Shown here one piece after another: positions 1 through 11,342 of a stretch of DNA of 11,342 bases (within the stretch, counting starts at the first letter, position 1; each line of letters begins with the position of its first letter). The translations under genes and the position numbers were made by a program. The notes beneath the pieces were generated by a model. That model made no database searches and was not told the DNA's origin. It was given only the letters and a program-made list of their open reading frames with translations. Source of the DNA: a virus (lineage: Duplodnaviria; Heunggongvirae; Uroviricota; Caudoviricetes); IMG/VR virus record IMGVR_UViG_2778261353_000007, positions 1 to 11,342 of that record; one strand, written 5' to 3'.

Positions 1-255
1 CTGCTTTTCCTTGATGCTATAGGGGTGCTGAGACCGATAACGCATTTTGTAAACCATCCCTGTGAGAGCGAATATTCCGATATCTGGTTATTAATTTATG
101 ATTCTTGTTTTATGTGATCGTGGTAGCGTTAATTCCGCTCATATATCATTGTAAAATATGGGTTTTATATGAACTATAATGCTTTCGTGATAATACGCTG
201 CGTGTATTAGGCGGAAAAAACTGATCTGGGGGATGTAGAAACTCAAGGAAGTAGC

Positions 256-261
256 TATAAT
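256..261 (+). promoter_or_regulatory. Candidate -10 hexamer (TATAAT) of the selC promoter
   Basis: Exact TATAAT about 31 nt upstream of the mature tRNA 5' end; no convincing -35 seen. Position-based inference only. Confidence 0.3.
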
Positions 262-292
262 GCGCCCCGCCTCCATGTAGCAATCGAGGCGC

Positions 293-387
293 GGAAGATC
301 GTCGTCTCCGGTGAGGCGGCTGGACTTCAAATCCAGTTGGGGCCGCCAGCGGTCCCGGGCAGGTTCGACTCCTGTGATCTTCCGCCA
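293..387 (+). tRNA. selC: tRNA-Sec (selenocysteine, anticodon UCA)
   Basis: 95-nt sequence GGAAGATCGTCGTCTCCGGTGAGGCGGCTGGACTTCAAATCCAGTTGGGGCCGCCAGCGGTCCCGGGCAGGTTCGACTCCTGTGATCTTCCGCCA matches the E. coli selC tRNA as I recall it: long variable arm, anticodon TCA at 327-329, encoded 3' CCA. The minus-strand ORFs overlapping it are spurious. Confidence 0.93.
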
Positions 388-549
388 AACCTCATCCAGC
401 CAGTTCCGAGACACTCCATAAAATCCTTTATATTCAATACGATGAATAATCAGCTTGTCCGTAATAGTCCGAGAGCATCTCCCTGAATCCGCGAAAAATA
501 TGTATAGTAATGTGTATAGATTTTTTATAAGTAGTATTCAGTTATACAC

Positions 550-1728
550 ATGGCTCTAACCGATATACAGATCAAACGAGCAAAACCACAAGACAAGCCA
601 TACACATTGAACGATGGACAAGGTCTGTCATTGCTTATCAATCCCGATGGCTCGAAAGGCTGGCGTTTCCGTTTCCGATTTGCAGGAAAAGCGCGGTTAA
701 TGTCATTTGGCAGCTACGATTTAGTAAGCCTCGCAGAAGCACGTGAGAAGCGTGATATCGCCCGTAAGCAGGTTGCTAATGGCATTGACCCGGTAGAGGA
801 ACGCAAAGCTTTAAGACTCGCCCAAAAGCTATCAACAGAAAATTCTTTCGAAGCAATATGTCGAGAATGGCATACCAACAAAGCTGACCGCTGGACTGTG
901 GCCTATCGAGAAGAAATTATTAAGACATTCGAGCAGGATGTCTTCCCGTTCATTGGTAAACGTCCTATCAGTGAAATCAAACCATTAGAACTGCTTGAAG
1001 TATTGCGACGAATAGAGAAACGAGGAGCACTAGAGAAGACCAGAAAAGTGCGCCAAAGATGCGGTGAGGTCTTTCGTTATGCAATCATAACTGGCCGAGC
1101 TGAATACAATCCAGCACCTGATTTAGCTATCGCTCTGGCCGTTCCTAAGCAAAAACACCACCCATTTTTATCTGCCGAAGAGTTGCCTTATTTTATTCAA
1201 GATCTTGAAGCGTATACCGGAAGCATCATCACTAAAAATGCGACAAAGATAGTCATGTTAACTGGCGTAAGAACTCAGGAAATGCGCTTTGCCACGTGGG
1301 ATGAAGTTGACCTTGAGAAAGGAATATGGGAGATTCCAGCTGAAAGGATGAAAATGCGCAGGCCTCATATTGTACCTCTATCTACTCAGGTGATTGCCCT
1401 TTTTAAACAGCTCAAGCCTATTAGCGGCCATTATCCCTACATTTTTATTGGAAGAAATAATCGTAGTAAACCGATCTCTAAAGAAAGTGTATCACAGGTT
1501 ATTGAATTACTAGGCTACAAAGGTCGCGCTACAGGTCACGGATTTAGACATACTATGTCAACCATTTTGCACGAAAAGGGATTTGACAGTGTATGGATTG
1601 AAATGCAATTAGCTCACTTAGATAAAAATACTATTCGAGGTACATATAACCATGCACAATATTTAGAGAAGAGAAAAGATATGATGCAATGGTATGCGGA
1701 CTTTTTATACAAATCATTGGAGCGGTAA
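550..1728 (+). CDS. int: Tyrosine site-specific recombinase, P4-type integrase
   Basis: 392-aa ORF directly downstream of a tRNA gene. N-terminus MALTDIQIKRAKPQDKPYTLNDGQGL is typical of P4-family integrase arm-binding domains. C-terminal catalytic signature is present: Arg in LTGVRTQE, HGFRHT box and Tyr in RGTYNHAQY. No obvious Shine-Dalgarno before the ATG. Confidence 0.9.
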   Translation: MALTDIQIKRAKPQDKPYTLNDGQGLSLLINPDGSKGWRFRFRFAGKARLMSFGSYDLVSLAEAREKRDIARKQVANGIDPVEERKALRLAQKLSTENSFEAICREWHTNKADRWTVAYREEIIKTFEQDVFPFIGKRPISEIKPLELLEVLRRIEKRGALEKTRKVRQRCGEVFRYAIITGRAEYNPAPDLAIALAVPKQKHHPFLSAEELPYFIQDLEAYTGSIITKNATKIVMLTGVRTQEMRFATWDEVDLEKGIWEIPAERMKMRRPHIVPLSTQVIALFKQLKPISGHYPYIFIGRNNRSKPISKESVSQVIELLGYKGRATGHGFRHTMSTILHEKGFDSVWIEMQLAHLDKNTIRGTYNHAQYLEKRKDMMQWYADFLYKSLER

Positions 1729-1737
1729 ACGCTCCAA
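1717..1737. terminator. Perfect 8-bp stem / 5-nt loop hairpin between convergent int and membrane-protein genes (possible bidirectional terminator)
   Basis: TTGGAGCG-GTAAA-CGCTCCAA spans the int stop codon; no clear U-tract on either strand, so terminator function is uncertain. Confidence 0.3.
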
Positions 1738-1744
1738 TACATAA

Positions 1745-2386
1745 TTAATATATGGATGCTATTACCATTAAGACTTTAAAGAAAAACATGACGACAATTA
1801 ACCAGATAATTAAATACCCCCAAATACTACTGATATGATAGTTAATTCTACCTTTTAGCATCCTCCAAAAGCTAAAATTTTCAGGCGTATGGGAAATATA
1901 ATATCTGCTCTTTACTATTTTATGATATTCATAATCAACAGGGCTATGGTTGAAAGTGCATGTTGATTTTATTTTTTCATACTCATCGCGAAGATTATCT
2001 ATATTTTTATAATCTTCTTCAGTCATTTCATTTTTTAAGCTATTTTTGAATAGAGAAAGTTTCCTTTCATACTCATTAAGTAACTCAGCATTTCTAAAGA
2101 GAGCTTCAGATTTAGCTCCTGATGCAACTCCCCACTCAATAAGACTAATTATAATTAATAGCATACTTAAGATAATAGAAAATGCGGTTATTAATATATT
2201 GAGTTTAGGATTTATATCATTAATCCAAAAATATTGCATTAATGATAATATAATACTGGAAAGGCCAATTAAAGCGAGACTAATAGTTGAAAAGATCTCT
2301 CTGACCTTTAATCGACGGGATGAATTATATCTTGCACACGATGTTTCCCATGCAGCTTTACTTAGGCTATCCAAAAAATCTTTCAT
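1745..2386 (-). CDS. Hypothetical membrane protein with three predicted TM segments; candidate effector partner of the adjacent reverse transcriptase
   Basis: ORF track gives 1745..2482 (245 aa). I prefer the internal start MKDFLDSL at 2386 (213 aa) because GGAG lies 6 nt upstream (2393-2396) and the longer N-terminus runs into the GC-rich spacer. Hydrophobic stretches IFSTISLALIGLSSIILSLMQYF, LNILITAFSIILSMLLIIISLI and C-terminal ISSIWGYLIIWLIVVMFFFKVLMVIASIY; charged, probably helical region between TM2 and TM3. AT-rich like the RT gene. No family recognised. Confidence 0.65.
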   Translation of the reverse strand: MKDFLDSLSKAAWETSCARYNSSRRLKVREIFSTISLALIGLSSIILSLMQYFWINDINPKLNILITAFSIILSMLLIIISLIEWGVASGAKSEALFRNAELLNEYERKLSLFKNSLKNEMTEEDYKNIDNLRDEYEKIKSTCTFNHSPVDYEYHKIVKSRYYISHTPENFSFWRMLKGRINYHISSIWGYLIIWLIVVMFFFKVLMVIASIY

Positions 2387-2580
2387 TATAAACTCCATGA
2401 ATAGTATAAAGTGACGCAACGCCGGAGATATCAGTCCAATCCTCTTCACCAGCAGTTTCCCCCGATGAAGGTTTACTACCATTTTAGGTCAGGAGCACTT
2501 CTGCCCATCACGGCATTTCCGCATGGGGTACGGCACCTGCAAGGCAAGTGCCGTCGGCGTTGGTCAAGCTCAATATATCA

Positions 2581-3990
2581 TTATTTAGGATATACTTCAC
2601 CTTCATCTGCATGCATGCTAGCTAGATTTTTAGCTTTATATCTCTCATAACGCTCTTCAACCTGTTCTTTAGTTAACCTCTCACCTTCAGCAATCCTTCC
2701 GCGCCGGTGCAAGAATTCAGTTTTTTGTTTAACAGTTTTAATCTGGTCGTAATCTCGTATATAACCTCTATGTGGGCTATATTTCATTTCATAATAAGCA
2801 CGTGTTACCTTTTTCAATCCTTCAGGTGCACAATTATCAAAATCATCCAAGCGTTTAAACATTTCTCTTATTATAAAATCTATTTTATGCAGAAGAGAGT
2901 GGTCGGTAATATTTGAATAATAAGCCACCCATCCATATCTTTTTTTCTCACTAATAGCCCCTGTTAACTTATCATTTAACTCTTCCAGAAAAACATCTTT
3001 AAGATCATCAACGGTTAAATGTGTATACTTCTTTAAACGTTTATTTTTATTGTGAAGATAGTCACTAAACCTAGATGCGATTGATTTTATAAATGATTCT
3101 ACAGTCGAATCTCGCACTGTTATAACATTTGCATTAAAAACATATCCCAAAAAGCTAAAAGACTCATTAAGAAAACCTAAACGTGTCTTAGATGATGTTG
3201 GCGGATGAGTGTTTAATCCCCTATATTTAAGCCTACGCCGTAGTGAATGATAAGCTGAATTTACCTCGTCATAATTTCCATAAATTAGCACATCATCAAC
3301 ATATCTATAGTAAGCTACATCAAACTTTAGCATTTTATCATCAACACTTTGCAGATAAATTGCAGCTAAAATATTAGATATTGACAACCCTTGAGGAACT
3401 CCCTTTTCATTATCAAAAAAAAACTTCCTCATTTTTTTATTAACACTATCACTTGTTGTTGGTGTTAAAAGAGAACGAACTATGAGGTCCAACGCTCTTT
3501 TACAATGCACTCTTTTTGATAGAATCTTTTTAAGTCGATGTTTGTTTATATTGTCATAGAAACCTTCAATATCACAACTACAAACATAAATATCTTCAGG
3601 GGGCATATCTTTTAAATCATCCGAGATATTTCTAATATAAGTTGAAGCAATACTCTTAGGTACACAATCAGGGAAAATCTCACAAAGAAAAACATTGAGC
3701 TGTTTTAATACAATGCGATCTCTAATTGTTGGTATAGAAATTACCCTAGGACTTTTTCCTCGCCCTTTACTTTTTAATTTTTCTAAGTAAGGAGTAAATC
3801 TAAATGAACCGTCAAGACATTTTTCCGAAACTTTCTTTAATTCCTTTCTGGCTCTACTTGAATATTGCATGCCATTGATTCTGTCAATGCCTTTTGCTGC
3901 CGACTTACTAAATTTATCAGAATACACATCAAATAAAGATTTTGGGGAGAAGAGTTTTTTAAATAACGTTTCTTGTGCTCGTTCATCCAT
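2581..3990 (-). CDS. Reverse transcriptase (RNA-directed DNA polymerase), unclassified, probably defence-associated
   Basis: 469-aa ORF with the RT motif series: AAKGIDRINGMQY (motif 0/1-like), RVISIPTIRDRIVLKQL (motif 2), CDIEGFYDNI (motif A, catalytic Asp), GVPQGLSISNILAAIYL (motif B'), YRYVDDVLIYG (motif C, YxDD), FLGYVF (primer grip). About 180-aa charged C-terminal extension. SD-like AAGGTG 5 nt before the ATG. Very AT-rich relative to the P4 backbone. Confidence 0.9.
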   Translation of the reverse strand: MDERAQETLFKKLFSPKSLFDVYSDKFSKSAAKGIDRINGMQYSSRARKELKKVSEKCLDGSFRFTPYLEKLKSKGRGKSPRVISIPTIRDRIVLKQLNVFLCEIFPDCVPKSIASTYIRNISDDLKDMPPEDIYVCSCDIEGFYDNINKHRLKKILSKRVHCKRALDLIVRSLLTPTTSDSVNKKMRKFFFDNEKGVPQGLSISNILAAIYLQSVDDKMLKFDVAYYRYVDDVLIYGNYDEVNSAYHSLRRRLKYRGLNTHPPTSSKTRLGFLNESFSFLGYVFNANVITVRDSTVESFIKSIASRFSDYLHNKNKRLKKYTHLTVDDLKDVFLEELNDKLTGAISEKKRYGWVAYYSNITDHSLLHKIDFIIREMFKRLDDFDNCAPEGLKKVTRAYYEMKYSPHRGYIRDYDQIKTVKQKTEFLHRRGRIAEGERLTKEQVEERYERYKAKNLASMHADEGEVYPK

Positions 3991-4129
3991 TGCATCACCT
4001 TATATTACGTCACGACTATTCCGTCTGACCACTTAATATCATGAATTCATTGCGTTCTTATAGCAAAATTTAATAAAAACTGCATTAACCTTCACTATTG
4101 ATTGGTCGCATTAAATTCTTATGCGCGCA

Positions 4130-4148
4130 GTGCTTTCCCCGCCTCGCC
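4130..4148 (-). other. cos site: 19-nt P2/P4 cohesive-end sequence
   Basis: Minus strand reads GGCGAGGCGGGGAAAGCAC, which matches the P2/P4 cohesive-end sequence as I recall it. It lies downstream of psu, as in P4, and is flanked by GC-rich hairpins (4147-4167 and 4197-4218). Confidence 0.55.
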
Positions 4149-4250
4149 CGCCCGCTTTGCGGGGCGGTTTTAATGCAGTTGCACTGACACGCTCAGACCG
4201 CGCCGGGAATGGCGCGGTTTGCAGAAAATGAGGCAGGAAAACGCATGCAA

Positions 4251-4282
4251 AGCCATGCACCTTATCGATGCATGGCTTTTTT
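4251..4282. terminator. Rho-independent terminator-like hairpin downstream of psu (possibly bidirectional)
   Basis: 9-bp stem AGCCATGCA / TGCATGGCT with a 9-nt loop, followed by a T-run on the plus strand; A-rich tract on the other side. Sits between the psu stop (4313) and cos. Confidence 0.45.
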
Positions 4283-4312
4283 CAGTAAAAACGGGCGGAT
4301 TTTCGGGGGGTT

Positions 4313-4885
4313 TTACACAGACTGATGTGATGCCAGTTGCGCACTTTTACGCGAAAAAATCATATTCTGCGCAGGAGTGAATTTTTCACGGCTGTCATCC
4401 ACCGAAGCCGCGTCAGGCCTGAATCCGATGGTCGTTAAAATGTCGCTATCCTGTGCGGAATAATTAATTTTTTCCCCCTTCGCAAGCCAGGACAGAAGGG
4501 CTTCACGCAGGGCATCTGTGGCACGCTGTATGGCACAGTTTCGGGCAATGGCCGTCAGCTCACTGTAGCCCATCAGCTCCGGTGCCAGTGCGGCCGCCAG
4601 TGCTGTGCCGTGCTGCTGCATAAAATCATTCAGCCGGTCGCGGATGCTGATGTGCTGAACGGCTTCATGCGAACGAATATAACGACCGGCAGCCTGATTC
4701 ACCTGCCATTTTCTGACTTCGATAATATTGCGTAATTCGTCCAGGCGACTGACGTTTCTGCCTTCCCCGGACAGAAGCCGCAGATATTCCTGTTCGGCCG
4801 CAGCCAGCTCATTTTTGCGTTGCAGCCATGCTGCTTTGTTATTCTGACAGGTGTCAAAGGCCTGCTGTAAGGCTGTGCTTTCCAT
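4313..4885 (-). CDS. psu: Polarity suppression protein Psu (capsid decoration / Rho antagonist)
   Basis: 190-aa ORF, the size I recall for P4 Psu; last gene of a minus-strand sid-delta-psu operon, followed by terminator and cos exactly as in P4. Confidence 0.88.
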   Translation of the reverse strand: MESTALQQAFDTCQNNKAAWLQRKNELAAAEQEYLRLLSGEGRNVSRLDELRNIIEVRKWQVNQAAGRYIRSHEAVQHISIRDRLNDFMQQHGTALAAALAPELMGYSELTAIARNCAIQRATDALREALLSWLAKGEKINYSAQDSDILTTIGFRPDAASVDDSREKFTPAQNMIFSRKSAQLASHQSV

Positions 4886-4958
4886 CGTTATCTCTTTCTC
4901 ATCATGCTGAAGAATAAAAATACGGTGTGCGGCGACGGCCGGGGTTAACCGGCAGCCC

Positions 4959-5459
4959 TCATTCCAGACGCAGCGAATATGATTGTGTTTTTAACCGTAC
5001 TGGCGGCAGTTCCTGTTTTTCATGCAGGCGTTCTGCCAGTTCGTCCGGCGTGACCGGGCGGACAATGAAGCGGTTGATGGTCTGAAGCGTTTTAAACACC
5101 AGACCACAGCCCGGATCCGTGCACACATAAAAACGTTCGGTGACTTCCTGAGACAGACGCCGCGATGTTCTTGACAGTGCAAGGCCGTTACATCTCCGAC
5201 AACAATATCCGGTAACAAGCATTCTTTTCGGGCGTTTCATACTGCCGGAGGCAGAAGTCAGTGAATCGCGGTATCTCTGTTTGCCTGAAATGTATTCCAT
5301 TCCTGAATCTTTACTGTCAGAGAAAAAGCTTTCACTCGCTTCAAATGTCGCAGAGCAATAAATATTCCGGCACTGTGCAATCATTATCTTGGTGCCATCG
5401 TCCATGAAATGTGCGCGACGAGTGTGAGCAACATGTCCACACGACGGGCAGTAAATCAT
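4959..5459 (-). CDS. delta: Late gene transcriptional activator Delta (tandem Ogr-type zinc finger)
   Basis: 166-aa ORF with two Cys-rich zinc-finger units (CPSCGH...CRNIYC and CCRRCNG...CTDPGCG), matching a duplicated Ogr-like fold. Start overlaps the sid stop (ATGA), indicating translational coupling. Confidence 0.88.
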   Translation of the reverse strand: MIYCPSCGHVAHTRRAHFMDDGTKIMIAQCRNIYCSATFEASESFFSDSKDSGMEYISGKQRYRDSLTSASGSMKRPKRMLVTGYCCRRCNGLALSRTSRRLSQEVTERFYVCTDPGCGLVFKTLQTINRFIVRPVTPDELAERLHEKQELPPVRLKTQSYSLRLE

Positions 5460-6190
5460 GACAGCAGTCCTCTGGCCTTAAGCTCTGCACCCTGCTGGTC
5501 TATTTTGTCCTGCCACACCTTGCGCTGTGCCGGTGTGCCTGCCACCTCATAATCCATGTGCGGGAGTGTTGCCGCTGACAGTCCGGTCAGCCGGAGAACC
5601 GGCTCGCCGGTGAGGCTGATTTGCATCTGTTTAATTTTCTGTTCCAGCGATGATTTCACCTGCTGCATGACAGCCTTTTCCGGTGCGACGTAGCCCTGAT
5701 GGCCGGTGGTGTTGGCGAGCGGATTTTCCTGTACCAGAATGCTCAGATGCATTGCCCGGACAAGCGCCTCACAGGTTTCATTCAGGGCGTGTTCCAGCTC
5801 ATGCTCTGCATACAGACTCAGAAGGTGATGATGTGCCTTCCGGTAGGCGGTGGCCGTGCTGTCACACGCCCCTTTCAGGCGTTCGCGTTCAAAATTCAGC
5901 ACCACGGCCAGATTGTCATATTCCTGTACCAGCTCCCGGCGTGCCACGCGCTCAATGTGGCGCTGTTTCAGCTCGTCGCTCAGGACACCACCGGCTGCAC
6001 GAAAGGCCGTGCGCCAGTCGTCAGCGTCGTTTCCGTCGGCCTGCGCCAGCGCATTTTTTTCCTGCTCTGCCCGTTCAATGGCCGTGACGGTCTCATCCAT
6101 CAGACGGGCGTTCTCAAGATGGGCGGCTCTGGCCTTTTCCAGTTGTGCCAGCGCGGATTGCAGATATTCAGGGATGGTGTTGTCAGACAT
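5456..6190 (-). CDS. sid: Capsid size determination protein Sid (external scaffold)
   Basis: 244-aa ORF, the size I recall for P4 Sid; first gene of the late operon; GAGGAG Shine-Dalgarno upstream of the ATG; helical, Ala/Glu/Leu-rich composition. Confidence 0.9.
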   Translation of the reverse strand: MSDNTIPEYLQSALAQLEKARAAHLENARLMDETVTAIERAEQEKNALAQADGNDADDWRTAFRAAGGVLSDELKQRHIERVARRELVQEYDNLAVVLNFERERLKGACDSTATAYRKAHHHLLSLYAEHELEHALNETCEALVRAMHLSILVQENPLANTTGHQGYVAPEKAVMQQVKSSLEQKIKQMQISLTGEPVLRLTGLSAATLPHMDYEVAGTPAQRKVWQDKIDQQGAELKARGLLS

Positions 6191-6261
6191 TTTCGGCTCC
6201 TCGTCACTTCAGGTTGAGAAAATTGTGACGTACACCGGACAACAACACGACGCATTGCAGA

Positions 6262-6279
6262 TGTGCCAGCCCTGACACA
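6262..6279 (-). promoter_or_regulatory. TGT-N12-ACA dyad, candidate Delta/Ogr activator site of the sid late promoter (Psid)
   Basis: TGTGCCAGCCCTGACACA lies 72-89 bp upstream of the sid ATG, consistent with an activator site centred near -55 of a P2/P4-type late promoter. A second TGT-N12-ACA at 6224-6241 lies closer to the gene. Confidence 0.4.
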
Positions 6280-6358
6280 GGAGACTCATCCTCACACCGG
6301 CAAGCCAGGAAAAGGTCGCAGGAAAAACCGGCTTACTGTTTGTTTTTTTATATTTTAC

Positions 6359-6462
6359 TGTTCACCTCTGTTCACCATAAGAAAAAAGATAAGTAATACA
6401 GTAAGTTAAATGGTGAACAATCGCAGTAATGACTGTTCACCGTCTGTTCACCACTGTTCACC
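6359..6462. repeat. Iteron cluster: six copies of octamer TGTTCACC (five direct, one inverted), ori-like alpha-binding sites
   Basis: Octamers at 6359, 6369, 6434, 6445, 6455 (plus strand) and 6412-6419 (GGTGAACA, inverted). TGTTCACC is the alpha-protein binding iteron of P4 ori/crr as I recall; it lies about 4.8 kb from a second cluster after alpha. Confidence 0.6.
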
Positions 6463-6566
6463 CGTTGATGGGCTTTTTGTGCTGTTTATTACTGTTTGTT
6501 TTTATTAATTCGCCGGGAATGAATAAGAAAAAACGATTTGTATTTCACTATAAAAATTACGAATTG

Positions 6567-6596
6567 CTTTAAGTGGCTTTAAATGACTTTAAGTGG
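6567..6596. repeat. Three tandem 10-bp repeats CTTTAAGTGG / CTTTAAATGA / CTTTAAGTGG
   Basis: Direct tandem repeats with 10-bp (one helical turn) periodicity in the control region upstream of vis; possible protein-binding array. Confidence 0.35.
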
Positions 6597-6621
6597 AGAT
6601 GAACAAAAAACACACAAGCAT

Positions 6622-6639
6622 TGTAAGGCTGCCGGAACA
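6622..6639 (+). promoter_or_regulatory. TGT-N12-ACA dyad, candidate Delta/Ogr site of the rightward late promoter (PLL-like) driving vis
   Basis: TGTAAGGCTGCCGGAACA lies about 100-120 bp upstream of the vis ATG; same dyad class as the Psid site, in divergent orientation. Confidence 0.3.
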
Positions 6640-6741
6640 AATCCCCCCTGTTGCGTCTGCTGAAAATATTCACAAAATAAAGCGCTACCCGAAGCCGGAC
6701 GGACTTATCCGGTGCTGTATGGACATTAACGAGGTAGCCCG

Positions 6742-7008
6742 ATGCAAGCTGTTTTTTCTTCCCCGTCTCCCGCCCCTGTGACGCCACTGATGCCGCTGCC
6801 GGACATCACGCAGGAGCGTTTTTTACGTCTGCCGGAAGTGATGCACCTGTGCGGCCTGTCACGCTCGACCATCTATGAACTCATCCGTAAGGGGGAATTT
6901 CCGCCGCAGGTGAGTCTTGGCGGTAAAAATGTGGCCTGGCTGCACTCTGAAGTCACCGCATGGATGGCCGGCCGCATTGCCGGACGCAAACGGGGGTATG
7001 ACGCATGA
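6742..7008 (+). CDS. vis: AlpA/Vis-family small DNA-binding regulator (excisionase-like)
   Basis: 88-aa ORF with the AlpA-type helix-turn-helix core [27 protein letters not shown] and a conserved Trp-containing tail; GAGGT Shine-Dalgarno 7 nt upstream. Same size and position as P4 orf88/vis as I recall. Confidence 0.75.
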
Positions 7009-7604
7009 TGATGCCCGCTCTGCAAAAAGTCCCTTTTTCTGGCTTGCCTTTTTCCGGCATTTGCGGATATAGTTTTTCCGCTGTCGCAAAATCGGCAGCC
7101 GGGCGTGGAAACCCGAGCAATCTAACGGCGACATATGACGCGCCATGCGTCTTTTTTTGTGTCGCAATCAACGCCACAGAGCGCCAGATTATGGTGTGGT
7201 GTGTGGTCAGTCGAGCAGATGGCACTCCGTGCATCCTGCCCGCGTCCGCTCATTATGCCGCAGAGTCAATGGTAGCTCAGGCGGGGCAGCCTCCGGGCTG
7301 GCCGGTATCCGTTAGAGCCGGTATTTCCACCCCCGTCTGGGCTATCGCCATCGAGCGTGGAAACTCCGGCGATAGCGTAACCTGCTATCTAACGGAGGCT
7401 GCCATCATGGCTACAACCCTTACCCCTTCACACCCTGAATTTGTCTTTGTGTTTGCGGCTGTCCGTCGCGCAGACCGTCATCCCCGTATCTGCATGCTTC
7501 GCACCGTCGCCGGTGATGAACGCAGTGCCCGCCGTTCCCTTGTCCGTGACTATGTGCTCTCCCTTGCTGCCCGTCTGCCGGTGGTGGAGGTGTCCCGTGC
7601 GTAA
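7005..7604 (+). CDS. Questionable 199-codon ORF overlapping the early promoter and immunity RNA region
   Basis: ATG overlaps the vis stop (ATGA), but the frame runs straight through seqA, the candidate CI RNA and seqC, and has Ala/Arg/Pro-rich low-complexity composition. Possibly only an N-terminal kil-like portion is real, or none of it. Confidence 0.2.
7044..7073 (+). promoter_or_regulatory. Candidate early promoter (PLE-like): TTGCCT, 18-bp spacer, TATAGT
   Basis: -35-like hexamer at 7044-7049 and -10-like hexamer at 7068-7073, about 30 bp upstream of seqA. Match by eye only. Confidence 0.3.
7103..7129 (+). promoter_or_regulatory. seqA-like target of the immunity RNA
   Basis: GCGTGGAAACCCGAGCAATCTAACGGC; its ends (GTGGAAA ... 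ATCTAACGG) are complementary to CCGTTAGA ... TTTCCAC at 7309-7330. A near-repeat lies at 7355-7397. Confidence 0.4.
7271..7346 (+). ncRNA. Candidate CI-like immunity RNA containing seqB
   Basis: Contains seqB-like CCGTTAGAGCCGGTATTTCCAC (7309-7330), complementary to seqA and seqC. GGTAGC (7271-7276) can pair with GCTATC (7341-7346) as a closing helix, with internal hairpin CAGCC-TCCG-GGCTG. Boundaries approximate. Confidence 0.35.
7355..7397 (+). promoter_or_regulatory. seqC-like second target of the immunity RNA
   Basis: GCGTGGAAACTCCGGCGATAGCGTAACCTGCTATCTAACGGAG repeats the seqA end motifs (GTGGAAAC ... ATCTAACGG) downstream of seqB. Confidence 0.4.
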
Positions 7605-7884
7605 TAAAAAAGCCCCTCAGACCGTCTCAGCGCGTCATGACGCCCGTGAACACCTCAGCATTGAGGCTTACCATAAGCTCAACCGCGCCAGCGCCGTATC
7701 CCAGTTTGTTGGGGGTGATTTGATTCACCGTGAACTCTCCGGCCTGCATCAGCTCTACATTCCGCATATTTTCAGCTACCTGAATGAAGATATTGATTTT
7801 GTGCTGAATGAACTGAAAGCCAAAGGCCTGTGCCGCGATTTTCTCGCCCAGCAGAAAGACCGGGGAGACAGGACGCATGTTTGA
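7597..7884 (+). CDS. Small protein (95 aa), possible epsilon-like antirepressor
   Basis: In-frame GTG at 7597 is preceded by GGAGG at 6 nt; the ORF-track ATG at 7441 would lie inside the immunity RNA region. Stop overlaps the next start (ATGTTTGA). The epsilon assignment is by position and size only. Confidence 0.45.
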
Positions 7885-8332
7885 TTTTCCCCAGCCCGGT
7901 GAGATTTACCGTTCTGCCGGTTTTCCCGATGTGGCCGTGGTCGGCATTCTGGAAGACGGTATTCCGTGGGAAATGCCGTACCGCTGCCCGGACATTGTCT
8001 GGAACCCGTACCGCCGTAAATTCAGTATCCTTGTGCGTATCCTCGCTGACGGGCGCACCACAGACATCCCGCTGGGGCGTTTTCTGCGGGAATTTACCTG
8101 TGACCGTCCTGACCTGTTTAAACGCAGCCCCGTAAACCGGCATGCGGTACTGAAAGAAATGGCCGGAGACCCGGAATTACAGAAATGGCGGGAGAAATAT
8201 CTGGATATTTACCCGCAGGCCCCTGTTCCGGTCAGCCGGGCGACACCGGTGGCGCGGGAATGGCGGGAAATCCCCCGCACGGAGCCTGACCCGGAAATCA
8301 CACCGGATAACAGTTACCGCAATTATCTGTAA
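7877..8332 (+). CDS. Hypothetical protein, 151 aa (P4 orf151-like)
   Basis: ORF translationally coupled to the preceding gene, same strand as alpha, backbone-like GC content. Function unknown. Confidence 0.6.
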   Translation: MFDFPQPGEIYRSAGFPDVAVVGILEDGIPWEMPYRCPDIVWNPYRRKFSILVRILADGRTTDIPLGRFLREFTCDRPDLFKRSPVNRHAVLKEMAGDPELQKWREKYLDIYPQAPVPVSRATPVAREWREIPRTEPDPEITPDNSYRNYL

Positions 8333-8467
8333 TTAAAAAACGACACCCGAAAAATTAAATGTGCGTATTCGCGCAGGGATACGCACGTCTTCAGGAGACG
8401 CAGATATGCCTTATCAGTTAATGCAACCGGCACGGAATGCAGTCATCTGTCACAGGGAGGAAAGCAA

Positions 8468-8788
8468 ATGAAAACACCCTTACCGCCCGTCTTACGCGCA
8501 GCCCTTTACCGTCGTGCTGTCGCCTGTGCCTGGCTGACCGTGTGCGAACGTCAGCACCGCTACCCGCATCTCACCCTTGAATCACTGGAGGCGGCCATCG
8601 CCGCTGAGCTGGAAGGCTTTTATCTGCGCCAGCACGGTGAGGAAAAAGGGCGTCAGATAGCCTGTGCCCTGCTGGAAGATTTAATGGAATCCGGCCCCCT
8701 GAAGGCCGCGCCGTCGCTGTCCTTTCTCGGGCTGGTTGTGATGGATGAACTCTGTGCCCGTCACATAAAAGCGCCGGTACTGCACTGA
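8468..8788 (+). CDS. Hypothetical protein, 106 aa (P4 orf106-like)
   Basis: Strong GGGAGG Shine-Dalgarno upstream of the ATG; sits immediately upstream of alpha. Function unknown. Confidence 0.6.
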
Positions 8789-8802
8789 AGGAGAACAACA
8801 CC

Positions 8803-11145
8803 ATGAAAATGAACGTAACCGCCACCGTCAGCCATGCGCTCGGCCACTGGCCGCGTATTCTCCCGGCGCTGGGGATTCAGGTGCTGAAAAACCGTCATCA
8901 GCCCTGTCCGGTCTGTGGCGGGAGTGACCGCTTCCGTTTTGATGACAGGGAGGGGCGCGGCACCTGGTACTGCAATCAGTGTGGTGCCGGTGACGGCCTG
9001 AAACTGGTTGAAAAGGTGTTTGGTGTTTCCCCGTCCGATGCGGCCGCAAAGGTGGCTGCCGTGACCGGCAGCCTGCCCCCGGCTGACCCGGCAGTGACGG
9101 CTGCCGCCGGTGCTGAAACAGACGCTGCCCGGAAGAACGCAGCCGCACTGGCACAAACCCTGATGGCGAAAACCCGTCCCGGAACCGGTAACGCCTACCT
9201 GACCCGCAAGGGCTTTCCCGACCGGGAATGCCGGATGCTGACCGGCACACACAGAGCCGGTGGCGTGAGCTGGCGCGCCGGTGACCTTGTGGTGCCACTG
9301 TATGACGACAGCGGCGAACTGGTTAACCTTCAGTTAATCAGTGCTGACGGCCGTAAGCGCACCCTGAAAGGCGGACAGGTCAGGGGCACCTGTCACACCC
9401 TTGAAGGACAGAATCAGGCCGGAAAACGTCTGTGGATAGCGGAGGGATACGCGACCGCACTTACCGTGCATCACCTGACCGGTGAAACGGTGATGGTGGC
9501 GCTTTCTTCCGTGAACCTCCTTTCTCTGGCCAGCCTTGCCCGGCAGAAGCATCCGGCCTGTCAGATTGTCCTTGCCGCAGACCGTGACCTCAGCGGTGAC
9601 GGCCAGAAAAAAGCCGCCGCAGCCGCAGATGCGTGTGAAGGTGTTGTTGCCCTGCCGCCGGTCTTCGGTGACTGGAATGATGCCTTCACGCAGTACGGCG
9701 GGGAAGCCACCCGTAAGGCCATTTATGATGCCATCCGGCCACCGACTGAAAGCCCGTTCGACACCATGAGCGAAGCGGAGTTTTCCGCCATGAGTACCAG
9801 CGAAAAGGCCATGCGTATCTATGAGCATTACGGCGAGGCGCTCGCGGTCGATGCCAACGGCCAGCTTCTGTCCCGCTATGAAAATGGTGTCTGGAAGGTG
9901 CTGCCGCCACAGGACTTTGCCCGGGATGTGGCCGGGCTGTTTCAGCGTCTGCGCGCGCCGTTCTCCTCCGGGAAGGTGGCCTCCGTGGTGGACACCCTGA
10001 AGCTGATTATTCCGCAGCAGGAAGCCCCCTCCCGCCGCCTGATTGGCTTTCGTAACGGCGTGCTCGACACGCAGAACGGCACGTTCCACCCGCACAGTCC
10101 GTCACACTGGATGCGCACCCTGTGCGATGTGGATTTCACCCCGCCGGTGGAAGGGGAAACGCTGGAAAACCACGCCCCCGCGTTCTGGCGCTGGCTTGAC
10201 CGTGCCGCCGGTGGCCGTGCGGAAAAACGCGACGTGATTCTGGCCGCACTGTTTATGGTGCTGGCAAACCGCTACGACTGGCAGCTCTTTCTGGAGGTGA
10301 CCGGTCCCGGCGGCAGCGGCAAAAGTATCATGGCCGAAATCGCCACCCTGCTGGCCGGGGAGGATAACGCCACGTCGGCCACCATCGAGACGCTGGAATC
10401 CCCGCGTGAACGTGCCGCGTTAACTGGCTTCTCACTGATACGCCTGCCGGACCAGGAAAAATGGAGCGGCGACGGTGCCGGACTCAAGGCCATCACTGGC
10501 GGCGATGCGGTGTCCGTGGACCCGAAATACCGGGATGCGTACTCCACGCATATCCCGGCGGTGATTCTGGCCGTGAACAATAACCCGATGCGCTTCACCG
10601 ACCGCAGCGGCGGCGTGTCACGCCGGCGGGTGATTATTCACTTCCCGGAACAGATAGCCCCGCAGGAGCGCGACCCGCAGCTTAAGGACAAAATCACCCG
10701 CGAGCTGGCGGTCATTGTGCGTCACCTGATGCAGAAGTTCAGCGACCCGATGCTCGCCCGGTCACTGCTTCAGTCCCAGCAGAACTCAGACGAGGCACTG
10801 AACATCAAACGGGATGCCGACCCGACGTTTGATTTTATCGGCTATCTGGAAACCCTGCCGCAGACCAGCGGCATGTATATGGGGAACGCCAGTATCATCC
10901 CGCGTAATTACCGTAAATACCTCTATCACGCCTATCTGGCCTACATGGAGGCAAACGGCTACCGGAATGTACTCAGTCTGAAAATGTTCGGGCTGGGGCT
11001 GCCGGTGATGCTGAAGGAATACGGACTGAATTACGAGAAGCGCCATACCAAACAGGGGATACAGACCAACCTGACGCTGAAAGAGGAAAGCTACGGCGAC
11101 TGGCTGCCAAAATGTGACGACCCTGCGACAACCCGACCCTCATGA
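8803..11145 (+). CDS. alpha: Replication protein alpha: primase (zinc finger + TOPRIM) fused to helicase, with C-terminal origin-binding region
   Basis: 780-aa ORF. N-terminal zinc motif CPVCGGSDRFRFDD...YCNQCG; TOPRIM-like region around WIAEGYATALTV and AADRDLSGDGQKKA; Walker A GPGGSGKS. AGGAG Shine-Dalgarno upstream. Size and architecture match P4 alpha. Confidence 0.92.
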   Translation: MKMNVTATVSHALGHWPRILPALGIQVLKNRHQPCPVCGGSDRFRFDDREGRGTWYCNQCGAGDGLKLVEKVFGVSPSDAAAKVAAVTGSLPPADPAVTAAAGAETDAARKNAAALAQTLMAKTRPGTGNAYLTRKGFPDRECRMLTGTHRAGGVSWRAGDLVVPLYDDSGELVNLQLISADGRKRTLKGGQVRGTCHTLEGQNQAGKRLWIAEGYATALTVHHLTGETVMVALSSVNLLSLASLARQKHPACQIVLAADRDLSGDGQKKAAAAADACEGVVALPPVFGDWNDAFTQYGGEATRKAIYDAIRPPTESPFDTMSEAEFSAMSTSEKAMRIYEHYGEALAVDANGQLLSRYENGVWKVLPPQDFARDVAGLFQRLRAPFSSGKVASVVDTLKLIIPQQEAPSRRLIGFRNGVLDTQNGTFHPHSPSHWMRTLCDVDFTPPVEGETLENHAPAFWRWLDRAAGGRAEKRDVILAALFMVLANRYDWQLFLEVTGPGGSGKSIMAEIATLLAGEDNATSATIETLESPRERAALTGFSLIRLPDQEKWSGDGAGLKAITGGDAVSVDPKYRDAYSTHIPAVILAVNNNPMRFTDRSGGVSRRRVIIHFPEQIAPQERDPQLKDKITRELAVIVRHLMQKFSDPMLARSLLQSQQNSDEALNIKRDADPTFDFIGYLETLPQTSGMYMGNASIIPRNYRKYLYHAYLAYMEANGYRNVLSLKMFGLGLPVMLKEYGLNYEKRHTKQGIQTNLTLKEESYGDWLPKCDDPATTRPS

Positions 11146-11152
11146 CTCACCT

Positions 11153-11176
11153 GACCGGCATCTGCCGGTCTTTTTT
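11153..11176 (+). terminator. Rho-independent terminator of alpha
   Basis: GACCGG-CATCTG-CCGGTC hairpin immediately followed by TTTTTT, 8 nt after the alpha stop codon. Confidence 0.7.
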
Positions 11177-11194
11177 ATCCCTGAAATCCCCGAA

Positions 11195-11285
11195 GGTGAA
11201 CAATCCACTGTTCACCCTTCACCGTATATTCACCCGTTATCACACTGAAATTAAAAGAGAAAAACGAAAGGTGAACAGTGTGAAC
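11195..11285. repeat. Second iteron cluster (crr-like, cis replication region), probably truncated by the window end
   Basis: GGTGAACA at 11195 and 11270, TGTTCACC at 11209, and degenerate copies (CTTCACC, ATTCACC, GTGAACA) immediately downstream of alpha. Confidence 0.5.
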
Positions 11286-11342
11286 AATCAAATCAAAAAA
11301 AACTTTTTTTTCTCCCTGTGTGATTTCAGTACGGGGGATTAA

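Follow-up and report, generated by a model that had tools for sequence, protein, structure and literature searches.

A stretch of tailed-phage DNA of 11,342 nucleotides (IMG/VR record IMGVR_UViG_2778261353_000007, positions 1 to 11,342; hereafter the window) carries, between an integrase gene and psu, a locus that is almost certainly a tripartite DRT10 anti-phage system of the UG17 family, subtype B. [quoted passage not shown] An earlier note on this DNA had proposed the SLATT gene product as a membrane effector that partners the RT in defence, and this proposal is supported by the SLATT_5 match, the UG17 assignment of the RT and the intergenic ncRNA, which together constitute DRT10. The locus is already known, as set out below, and the present analysis adds the position of the ncRNA, a predicted template and residue-level predictions for the two proteins.

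Identification of the locus as a DRT10 system

The 213-residue SLATT protein matched Pfam PF18160 (SLATT_5) with an E value of 3.7e-31 and 108.4 bits, against a cut-off of 29.5, residues 1-202 aligning to positions 1-190 of the 192-position profile. It was likewise recognised by NCBIfam NF033631 (131.2 bits; cut-off 60) and by the PADLOC model RTasSLATT (6.3e-36). The RT, 469 amino acids in length, aligned over its full length to the PADLOC model RT_UG17 (4.4e-140, 465 bits), the next-best model giving 2.7e-35; it also matched RVT_1 (1.6e-20) and has an intact YxDD motif (YVDD at residue 230). The combination of a UG17 RT, SLATT_5 and an ncRNA has been named DRT10 (Tang et al., bioRxiv 10.1101/2025.10.16.682844; Sanchez-Nieto et al., bioRxiv 10.64898/2026.04.29.721553).

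Both proteins are those of a described system. SLATT is identical to H120_04183 of Escherichia coli H120, listed as UG17_locus_1580 in Table S1 of Tang et al., and the RT is identical to WP_000344414.1 (H120_04184), a RefSeq protein that also occurs in two of the related loci collected here (L001 and L002). In strain H120, sbcB is essential owing to H120_04184 and the downstream SLATT gene H120_04183; insertion sequences in the gene of WP_000344414.1 suppress this essentiality, and the system, when moved to K-12, causes a fitness defect upon sbcB repression (Rousset et al., bioRxiv 10.1101/2020.05.25.114553). The position of the H120 RT-SLATT pair between psu and int was the founding observation for the P4 defence hotspot (Rousset et al. 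2022, PMC9122126). The system was subsequently classified as UG17 (Mestre et al. 2022, PMC9226505) and assigned to UG17-B (Sanchez-Nieto et al.).

An assignment of the membrane protein as a CBASS effector was considered and rejected because no cyclase gene lies nearby; the neighbours are only the RT, the integrase and psu, with no CD-NTase/SMODS or SLOG gene among them.

The RTs of the clade, including the tails found in loci L016-L049, keep a C-terminal M..DEGxxY motif, of which the tyrosine is Y467 in the present protein (window positions 2584-2640, minus strand). Tang et al. mapped the priming residue of the Eco3 system to a serine (S456). Near the motif the present RT has a serine, S458, where its relatives have N, A, T or E. 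As the tyrosine is conserved and the serine is variable, the priming residue of UG17-B may be a tyrosine, and synthesis of complementary DNA (cDNA) may start from Y467 and not from a serine.

The intergenic ncRNA and its predicted template

The third component of the system, the intergenic ncRNA, was missed by the earlier note. The gap that holds it, 194 nt from the RT stop codon to the SLATT start codon, is richer in guanine and cytosine (GC) and folds with a minimum free energy of -72.4 kcal/mol (z = -4.3 against shuffled sequences). A covariance model, R1, was built solely from five published Eco2-type DRT10 ncRNAs (Table S2 of Tang et al.), with the window sequence excluded. The model matched the minus strand of the gap over its full length with 52.8 bits and an E value of 5.7e-14 (Table 1); no Rfam family matched at these positions. 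R1 also matched the equivalent gap in 42 of 42 related loci that hold upstream sequence. Across 39 distinct ncRNA sequences, 87.6% of the alignment cells form pairs, compared with 37-52% in slid controls, and compensatory changes are present in 43 of the 52 pairs, a value equalled by none of 500 shuffles; the alignment was fitted to the model, which somewhat favours the structure, yet the margin is large. In all three UG17 subtypes an ncRNA has been placed upstream of SLATT (Sanchez-Nieto et al.).

Just 5' of the template loop stands a stem-loop whose helices 8-10 pair in 74-88% of the cells and carry compensatory changes. It corresponds to SL5 of Tang et al., the element that sets the template boundary, and its role is taken from their work. 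An unpaired loop with the sequence AGGAUUGGACUGAUAUCUC precedes the 3' strand of the basal stem. Within it lies a predicted A-B-A' template, GAU-UGGACU-GAU. The pattern GAU-N5-7-GAU recurs across the clade (22 of the 27 distinct loops), the length of the spacer varying to give periods of 8, 9 or 10. An A-B-A' signature programs telomerase-like repeat addition (Tang et al.), and the cDNA repeat predicted from the template in the window is 5'-AGTCCAATC-3', with a length of 9 nt.

A divergent RT-ncRNA-SLATT subclade was also observed among the related loci (L045-L050). Its template loops, such as GGAUUUUUUGAAACGC and AGUUUUUAUUAAAUAGU, are U-rich and without GAU..GAU, and its ncRNAs (for instance L045, 1918-2109, and L048, 2407-2603) have weak model scores of 30-38 bits. 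The product in this subclade may be different, either A-rich or DRT9-like.

Architecture and conservation of the SLATT protein

The SLATT open reading frame (ORF) runs from ATG to TAA. Its start is the one annotated by RefSeq in identical loci; GGAG lies 7 nt 5' of the ATG, and the homologues begin at MKDF. By our own arithmetic, the chance of an ORF of 213 codons at 28% GC is approximately 1e-8. Two other ORFs were dropped: one of 245 amino acids from the ATG at 2482, which crosses the ncRNA and has an N-terminal extension without conservation, and one on the plus strand (2046-2414), for which there was no support.

The hydrophobic segments of the protein were located from Kyte-Doolittle peaks. 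The earlier note had described two closely spaced transmembrane (TM) helices near the N-terminus and a third at the C-terminus, and this arrangement was obtained (residues 31-52, 63-86 and 187-213). At least three hydrophobic segments arose in 311 of 2000 shuffles of the SLATT composition and are therefore not rare by chance. Among 60 relatives, with identities down to approximately 20%, three segments are present in 58 and the C-terminal segment in 59. The weight of the three-segment architecture hence comes from its conservation among relatives and from the profile matches, and not from composition. SLATT proteins have been described with 2-3 TM helices (Mestre et al. 2022).

A profile search returned 636 cluster representatives (E ≤ 1e-3) of approximately 200 amino acids, aligned end to end. 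Solved structures related to SLATT were found neither by sequence search nor by fold search; within a set of viral models, the strongest structural matches were giant-virus proteins annotated as SLATT, with template-modelling scores of 0.5-0.6. AlphaFold2 (AF2), supplied with the 60 relatives, gave a confident all-helical model with a pLDDT of 95.8 and a pTM of 0.87, the helices spanning residues 2-53, 60-87, 89-116, 123-141, 149-158, 160-166 and 173-212. The earlier note had taken the middle of the protein, about 100 residues, to be charged and probably coiled. The region is indeed charged (16 K/R and 15 D/E) and helical; it consists, however, of several short helices and not of one long coiled coil, and 'helical' is therefore the better label.

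Four residues, R19, N146, H147 and D151, are invariant among the 60 relatives, and W13, T15, R25 and Y136 are nearly so. The N-terminal helix thus carries W13, T15, R19 and R25, and the middle domain carries an N146-H147-x-P-x-D151 motif. Lysine and arginine account for 7 of the 30 N-terminal residues, 1 of the 10 residues in the loop between TM1 and TM2 and 16 of the 100 residues of the middle domain. By the positive-inside rule, the N-terminus and the middle domain would be cytoplasmic and the C-terminus would lie outside, in a topology with three TM helices. The conserved residues all fall in the parts predicted to be cytoplasmic and are therefore candidates for a sensing surface.

A near-identical SLATT gene in E. 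coli 2015C-4136CT1 (NZ_CP027550.1; L001, 6111-6686) is frameshifted, so that the protein ends at residue 191 and is without TM3; the RT of that locus is intact. The truncation is possibly a natural loss-of-function allele.

Linkage of the RT, the ncRNA and SLATT

An RT lies directly upstream of the SLATT homologue in all 37 of the informative loci (7 of 7 in a first set and 30 of 30 from metagenomes); these RTs are 469-516 amino acids in length and 170-230 nt away from SLATT. The first seven loci, drawn from genomes and metagenomes and having SLATT identities of 38-100%, hold RTs of 469-486 amino acids and gaps of approximately 190-200 nt, and they include Serratia P4-like satellites as well as non-P4 neighbourhoods. 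Metagenomes yielded 37 additional loci. A co-oriented RT of the UG17 type lies directly upstream in 30 of them; the other seven hold less than approximately 500 nt of upstream sequence, and the ncRNA is present in five of these. The earlier note had named a family of homologues mostly without an adjacent RT as the outcome that would refute its proposal, and for this clade such an outcome is itself refuted. Because the scan needs conserved peptide patterns, the sampling favours UG17-B-like proteins, and a scan of genome contigs by exact peptide patterns gave one locus.

Two metagenome contigs, L010 and L011, have the RT-ncRNA-SLATT module outside P4, beside RhuM-like and SymE-toxin genes. As the module is found outside P4 satellites, it moves independently of its carrier.

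Proposed mechanism and alternative explanations

With moderate confidence, we propose that the system makes a repeat cDNA which is kept low by the host exonuclease ExoI, and that SLATT damages the membrane once this cDNA accumulates. The RT would bind the structured ncRNA that the gap encodes and would copy the short template GAUUGGACU in repeated rounds, with realignment to the downstream GAU, to give, constitutively, a protein-primed tandem-repeat single-stranded DNA (ssDNA) with the predicted sequence (AGTCCAATC)n. In uninfected cells, ExoI (SbcB), which degrades ssDNA in the 3'-5' direction, would keep this product low. Where ExoI is lost, is outcompeted during infection or is blocked, for example by a phage protein resembling a single-stranded DNA-binding protein, the cDNA would accumulate, and SLATT would then compromise the inner membrane and halt the cell before the phage cycle is completed (abortive infection). 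Membrane disruption by SLATT, which the earlier note had also suggested, is a prediction in the literature; we infer that it would take the form of pore formation or membrane depolarisation, with the cDNA as the direct activator of SLATT.

This mechanism draws on work with homologous systems. SLATT, the RT and the ncRNA are all needed for defence and a tandem-repeat cDNA is made; deletion of SLATT abolishes defence in Eco1, Eco2 and Eco3 (Tang et al., Fig. 1C and fig. S1C). In UG17-A, toxicity in delta-sbcB cells needs SLATT, the RT and the ncRNA, and first-strand cDNA rises on infection (Sanchez-Nieto et al.).

Several points weigh against our account. Table S1 of Tang et al. flags UG17_locus_1580 (E. 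coli H120) as 'ncRNA associated: FALSE'; here, a model built from the Eco2-type sequences of those authors detects an ncRNA, which amends the table slightly. No consensus promoter for either the ncRNA or the SLATT gene emerged from a simple scan for sigma-70 sites. Pore formation, depolarisation and DNA binding by SLATT_5 are an open question in both DRT10 papers. For the H120 proteins, only the RT-dependent essentiality of sbcB is documented, and no test of SLATT alone or of phage defence by this exact locus was found in the text consulted. Finally, the cDNA of Eco3 falls upon infection with Bas18, and Tang et al. have proposed the opposite logic, in which the cDNA restrains SLATT.

Under that opposite logic, SLATT is intrinsically toxic, the cDNA acts in the manner of an antitoxin, and infection lowers the cDNA and frees SLATT. 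The behaviour of Eco3 speaks for it, but the results for H120 run the other way: loss of ExoI leads to toxicity and inactivation of the RT relieves it, so that more cDNA accompanies toxicity and the absence of an RT accompanies a healthy cell. In UG17-A, moreover, delta-sbcB cells tolerate a dead RT as well as mutation of the ncRNA, and first-strand cDNA rises on infection. Given that exonuclease loss is toxic and RT loss curative in H120, and given the UG17-A data, activation of SLATT by the cDNA is favoured over its restraint by the cDNA, and we consider the antitoxin-like arrangement unlikely for the present locus.

SLATT might instead act as a conduit that exports the RT-made DNA or anchors it to the membrane, harm to the cell or phage coming from the DNA itself. 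According to Sanchez-Nieto et al., Burroughs 2015 proposed that SLATT proteins may export RT-derived DNA intermediates, and the related DRT9 works through toxic DNA homopolymers, with no need for an effector. In delta-sbcB cells, however, inactivation of SLATT ends the toxicity although the RT and the ncRNA remain, and the cDNA alone is therefore not toxic; furthermore, a 213-residue protein with three TM helices would offer little for DNA translocation unless it formed a large oligomer. A conduit is accordingly a quite unlikely explanation.

The protein could also be an independent membrane protein of a P4 satellite, holin-like or for superinfection exclusion, that merely adjoins the RT: it sits in a cargo hotspot of a mobile element, 194 nt from the RT, and may have its own promoter. 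This is very improbable in view of its strict linkage to the RT and the ncRNA across 37-100% identity and in P4 and non-P4 contexts, of a gap filled by the template RNA of the RT, and of the absence of lysis partners nearby. Likewise, a retron (RT, msr/msd and effector), as suggested in 2020 when Rousset et al. called the system a 'putative retron', resembles it in so far as some retron types combine an RT, an ncRNA and a membrane effector, but is highly improbable, since the RT reaches 465 bits on RT_UG17 and only 35 bits on the NCBIfam model retron_St85_RT (cut-off 235), no Rfam retron msr family matched, and the ncRNA matches the Eco2-type DRT10 model.

Returning to activation of SLATT by accumulated cDNA, we offer a more specific version as a tentative suggestion, which we rate as rather doubtful in its entirety. 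The conserved cytoplasmic face of SLATT_5, formed by the N-terminal helix (W13, T15, R19, R25) and the N146-H147-x-P-x-D151 motif, may directly sense the RT-linked 9-nt repeat ssDNA, with one repeat per protomer, such that a long cDNA, primed from Y467 in UG17-B, would nucleate an oligomeric pore. Multivalent binding of SLATT to the cDNA has already been speculated upon by Tang et al.; only the residue-level prediction of a sensor and the suggestion of tyrosine priming are new here.

Genomic setting

The DNA of the window is that of a P4-like satellite, with tRNA-Sec at its integration site (Table 1). The island between int and psu has a GC content of 0.28-0.33, against 0.5-0.63 in the P4 backbone, and holds two co-oriented minus-strand ORFs, SLATT at 1745-2386 and the RT at 2581-3990; the earlier note was thus correct in regarding the two genes as co-oriented and alike in their AT-rich composition. 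The island is rare: among 5426 complete E. coli genomes, only five carry it, all at the same site and with 99.7-99.9% nucleotide identity. Deletion of the neighbouring recombinase left defence unchanged (Tang et al., fig. S1C).

A terminator-like hairpin directly past the SLATT stop codon overlaps the last codons of int and is probably a terminator shared by int and SLATT. A further hairpin, GC-rich (CCGCCCGC...GCGGGGCGG), was noted at 4148-4167 between psu and the RT gene; it probably serves to terminate psu, and the AT-rich cargo has its right edge there.

Table 1. Positions of the features of the DRT10 locus and of its surroundings in the window
Feature	Position	Strand	Basis or remark
tRNA-Sec	293-387	+	Mark of the integration site
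P4-type integrase (int)	550-1728	+	Pfam Arm-DNA-bind_3, Phage_int_M, Phage_integrase; left border of the hotspot, outside the system
Terminator-like hairpin	1715-1739	-	10-bp stem, T-rich tail; between convergent int and SLATT
SLATT_5 gene, DRT10 effector	1745-2386	-	213 aa + stop, ATG to TAA
TM3, residues 187-213	1748-1828	-	C-terminal; hydropathy maximum 2.92; conserved W195
Charged helical domain, residues 87-186	1829-2128	-	16 K/R + 15 D/E
TM2, residues 63-86	2129-2200	-	Hydropathy maximum 2.84; ends in conserved SLIEWG (alignments)
TM1, residues 31-52	2231-2296	-	Hydropathy; extends the N-terminal helix (AF2 helix 2-53)
DRT10 ncRNA, Eco2/UG17-B type, template RNA for the RT	2409-2573	-	Covariance model R1
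Predicted A-B-A' template	2430-2441	-	Within the template loop, beside the 2444-2474 stem-loop
Stem-loop 5' of the template loop	2444-2474	-	Pairing and compensatory changes in helices 8-10
UG17 (DRT10) RT	2581-3990	-	469 aa; upstream of SLATT, co-oriented
psu	4313-4885	-	Pfam Psu, 1.3e-88; right border of the P4 hotspot
Ogr/Delta gene	4959-5459	-	
isrK and C4 antisense RNA	7080-7157, 7265-7352	+	P4-type immunity region
Primase	8803-11145	+	

Significance

As a discovery the locus adds little, because publications have dealt with it since 2020 and the name DRT10 was given to its family in 2025. It is of use as a clean natural example of UG17-B for the question of how reverse-transcribed repeat DNA switches on SLATT. 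For this purpose it supplies the coordinates of an ncRNA that is unflagged in the published table, a predicted 9-nt repeat and four invariant SLATT residues, as well as a third TM helix found across the family, a natural allele truncated before the end of TM3 and a conserved C-terminal tyrosine in the RT.

Comparison with known systems

The closest known system is the RT-SLATT pair of E. coli H120 (Rousset et al. 2020/2021 and 2022), which has the same proteins in the same position between psu and int, with no detectable difference at the protein level. UG17-B, or Eco2-type, DRT10 systems in general share the order of RT, a gap of approximately 200 nt and SLATT_5, the ncRNA upstream of SLATT and the YVDD of the RT. 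The likeness extends to the ncRNA, in which a basal stem encloses several stem-loops and a 3' template loop has the A-B-A' arrangement. The ncRNA of the window is nevertheless shorter (165 nt, against 171-186 nt for the published Eco2-type ncRNAs) and scores 52.8 bits, against up to 173, and its spacer B is UGGACU where the published ones have AUGACU or CUGACU.

DRT10 of subtype A (Escherichia sp. E3659; Eco1- and Eco3-type) is built from the same three components, its SLATT likewise belonging to SLATT_5, and its SbcB dependence has been shown (Sanchez-Nieto et al.). Its ncRNA differs in being approximately 137-143 nt in length and in belonging to another covariance model, and its repeats are of 7 or 9 nt with other sequences.

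Other SLATT effectors, namely the two-TM protein of CBASS and the accessory SLATT proteins of RADAR, DRT3 and DRT9, are likewise predicted to be pore-forming modules with 2-3 TM helices and are also coupled to an enzyme that produces nucleic acids or nucleotides. The protein described here differs in having an RT, and no CD-NTase/SMODS or SLOG protein, as its partner, and in a signal that is presumed to be a long ssDNA of repeats and not a cyclic oligonucleotide. DRT9 (UG28) also has an RT of UG class 2 and an ncRNA of similar shape, and there too synthesis is primed by protein and a short template is copied many times over, as in telomerase-like repeat addition. In DRT9, however, a U-tract is copied into poly-dA and no SLATT is required, whereas the present system combines a 9-nt heteropolymeric template with an obligatory SLATT.

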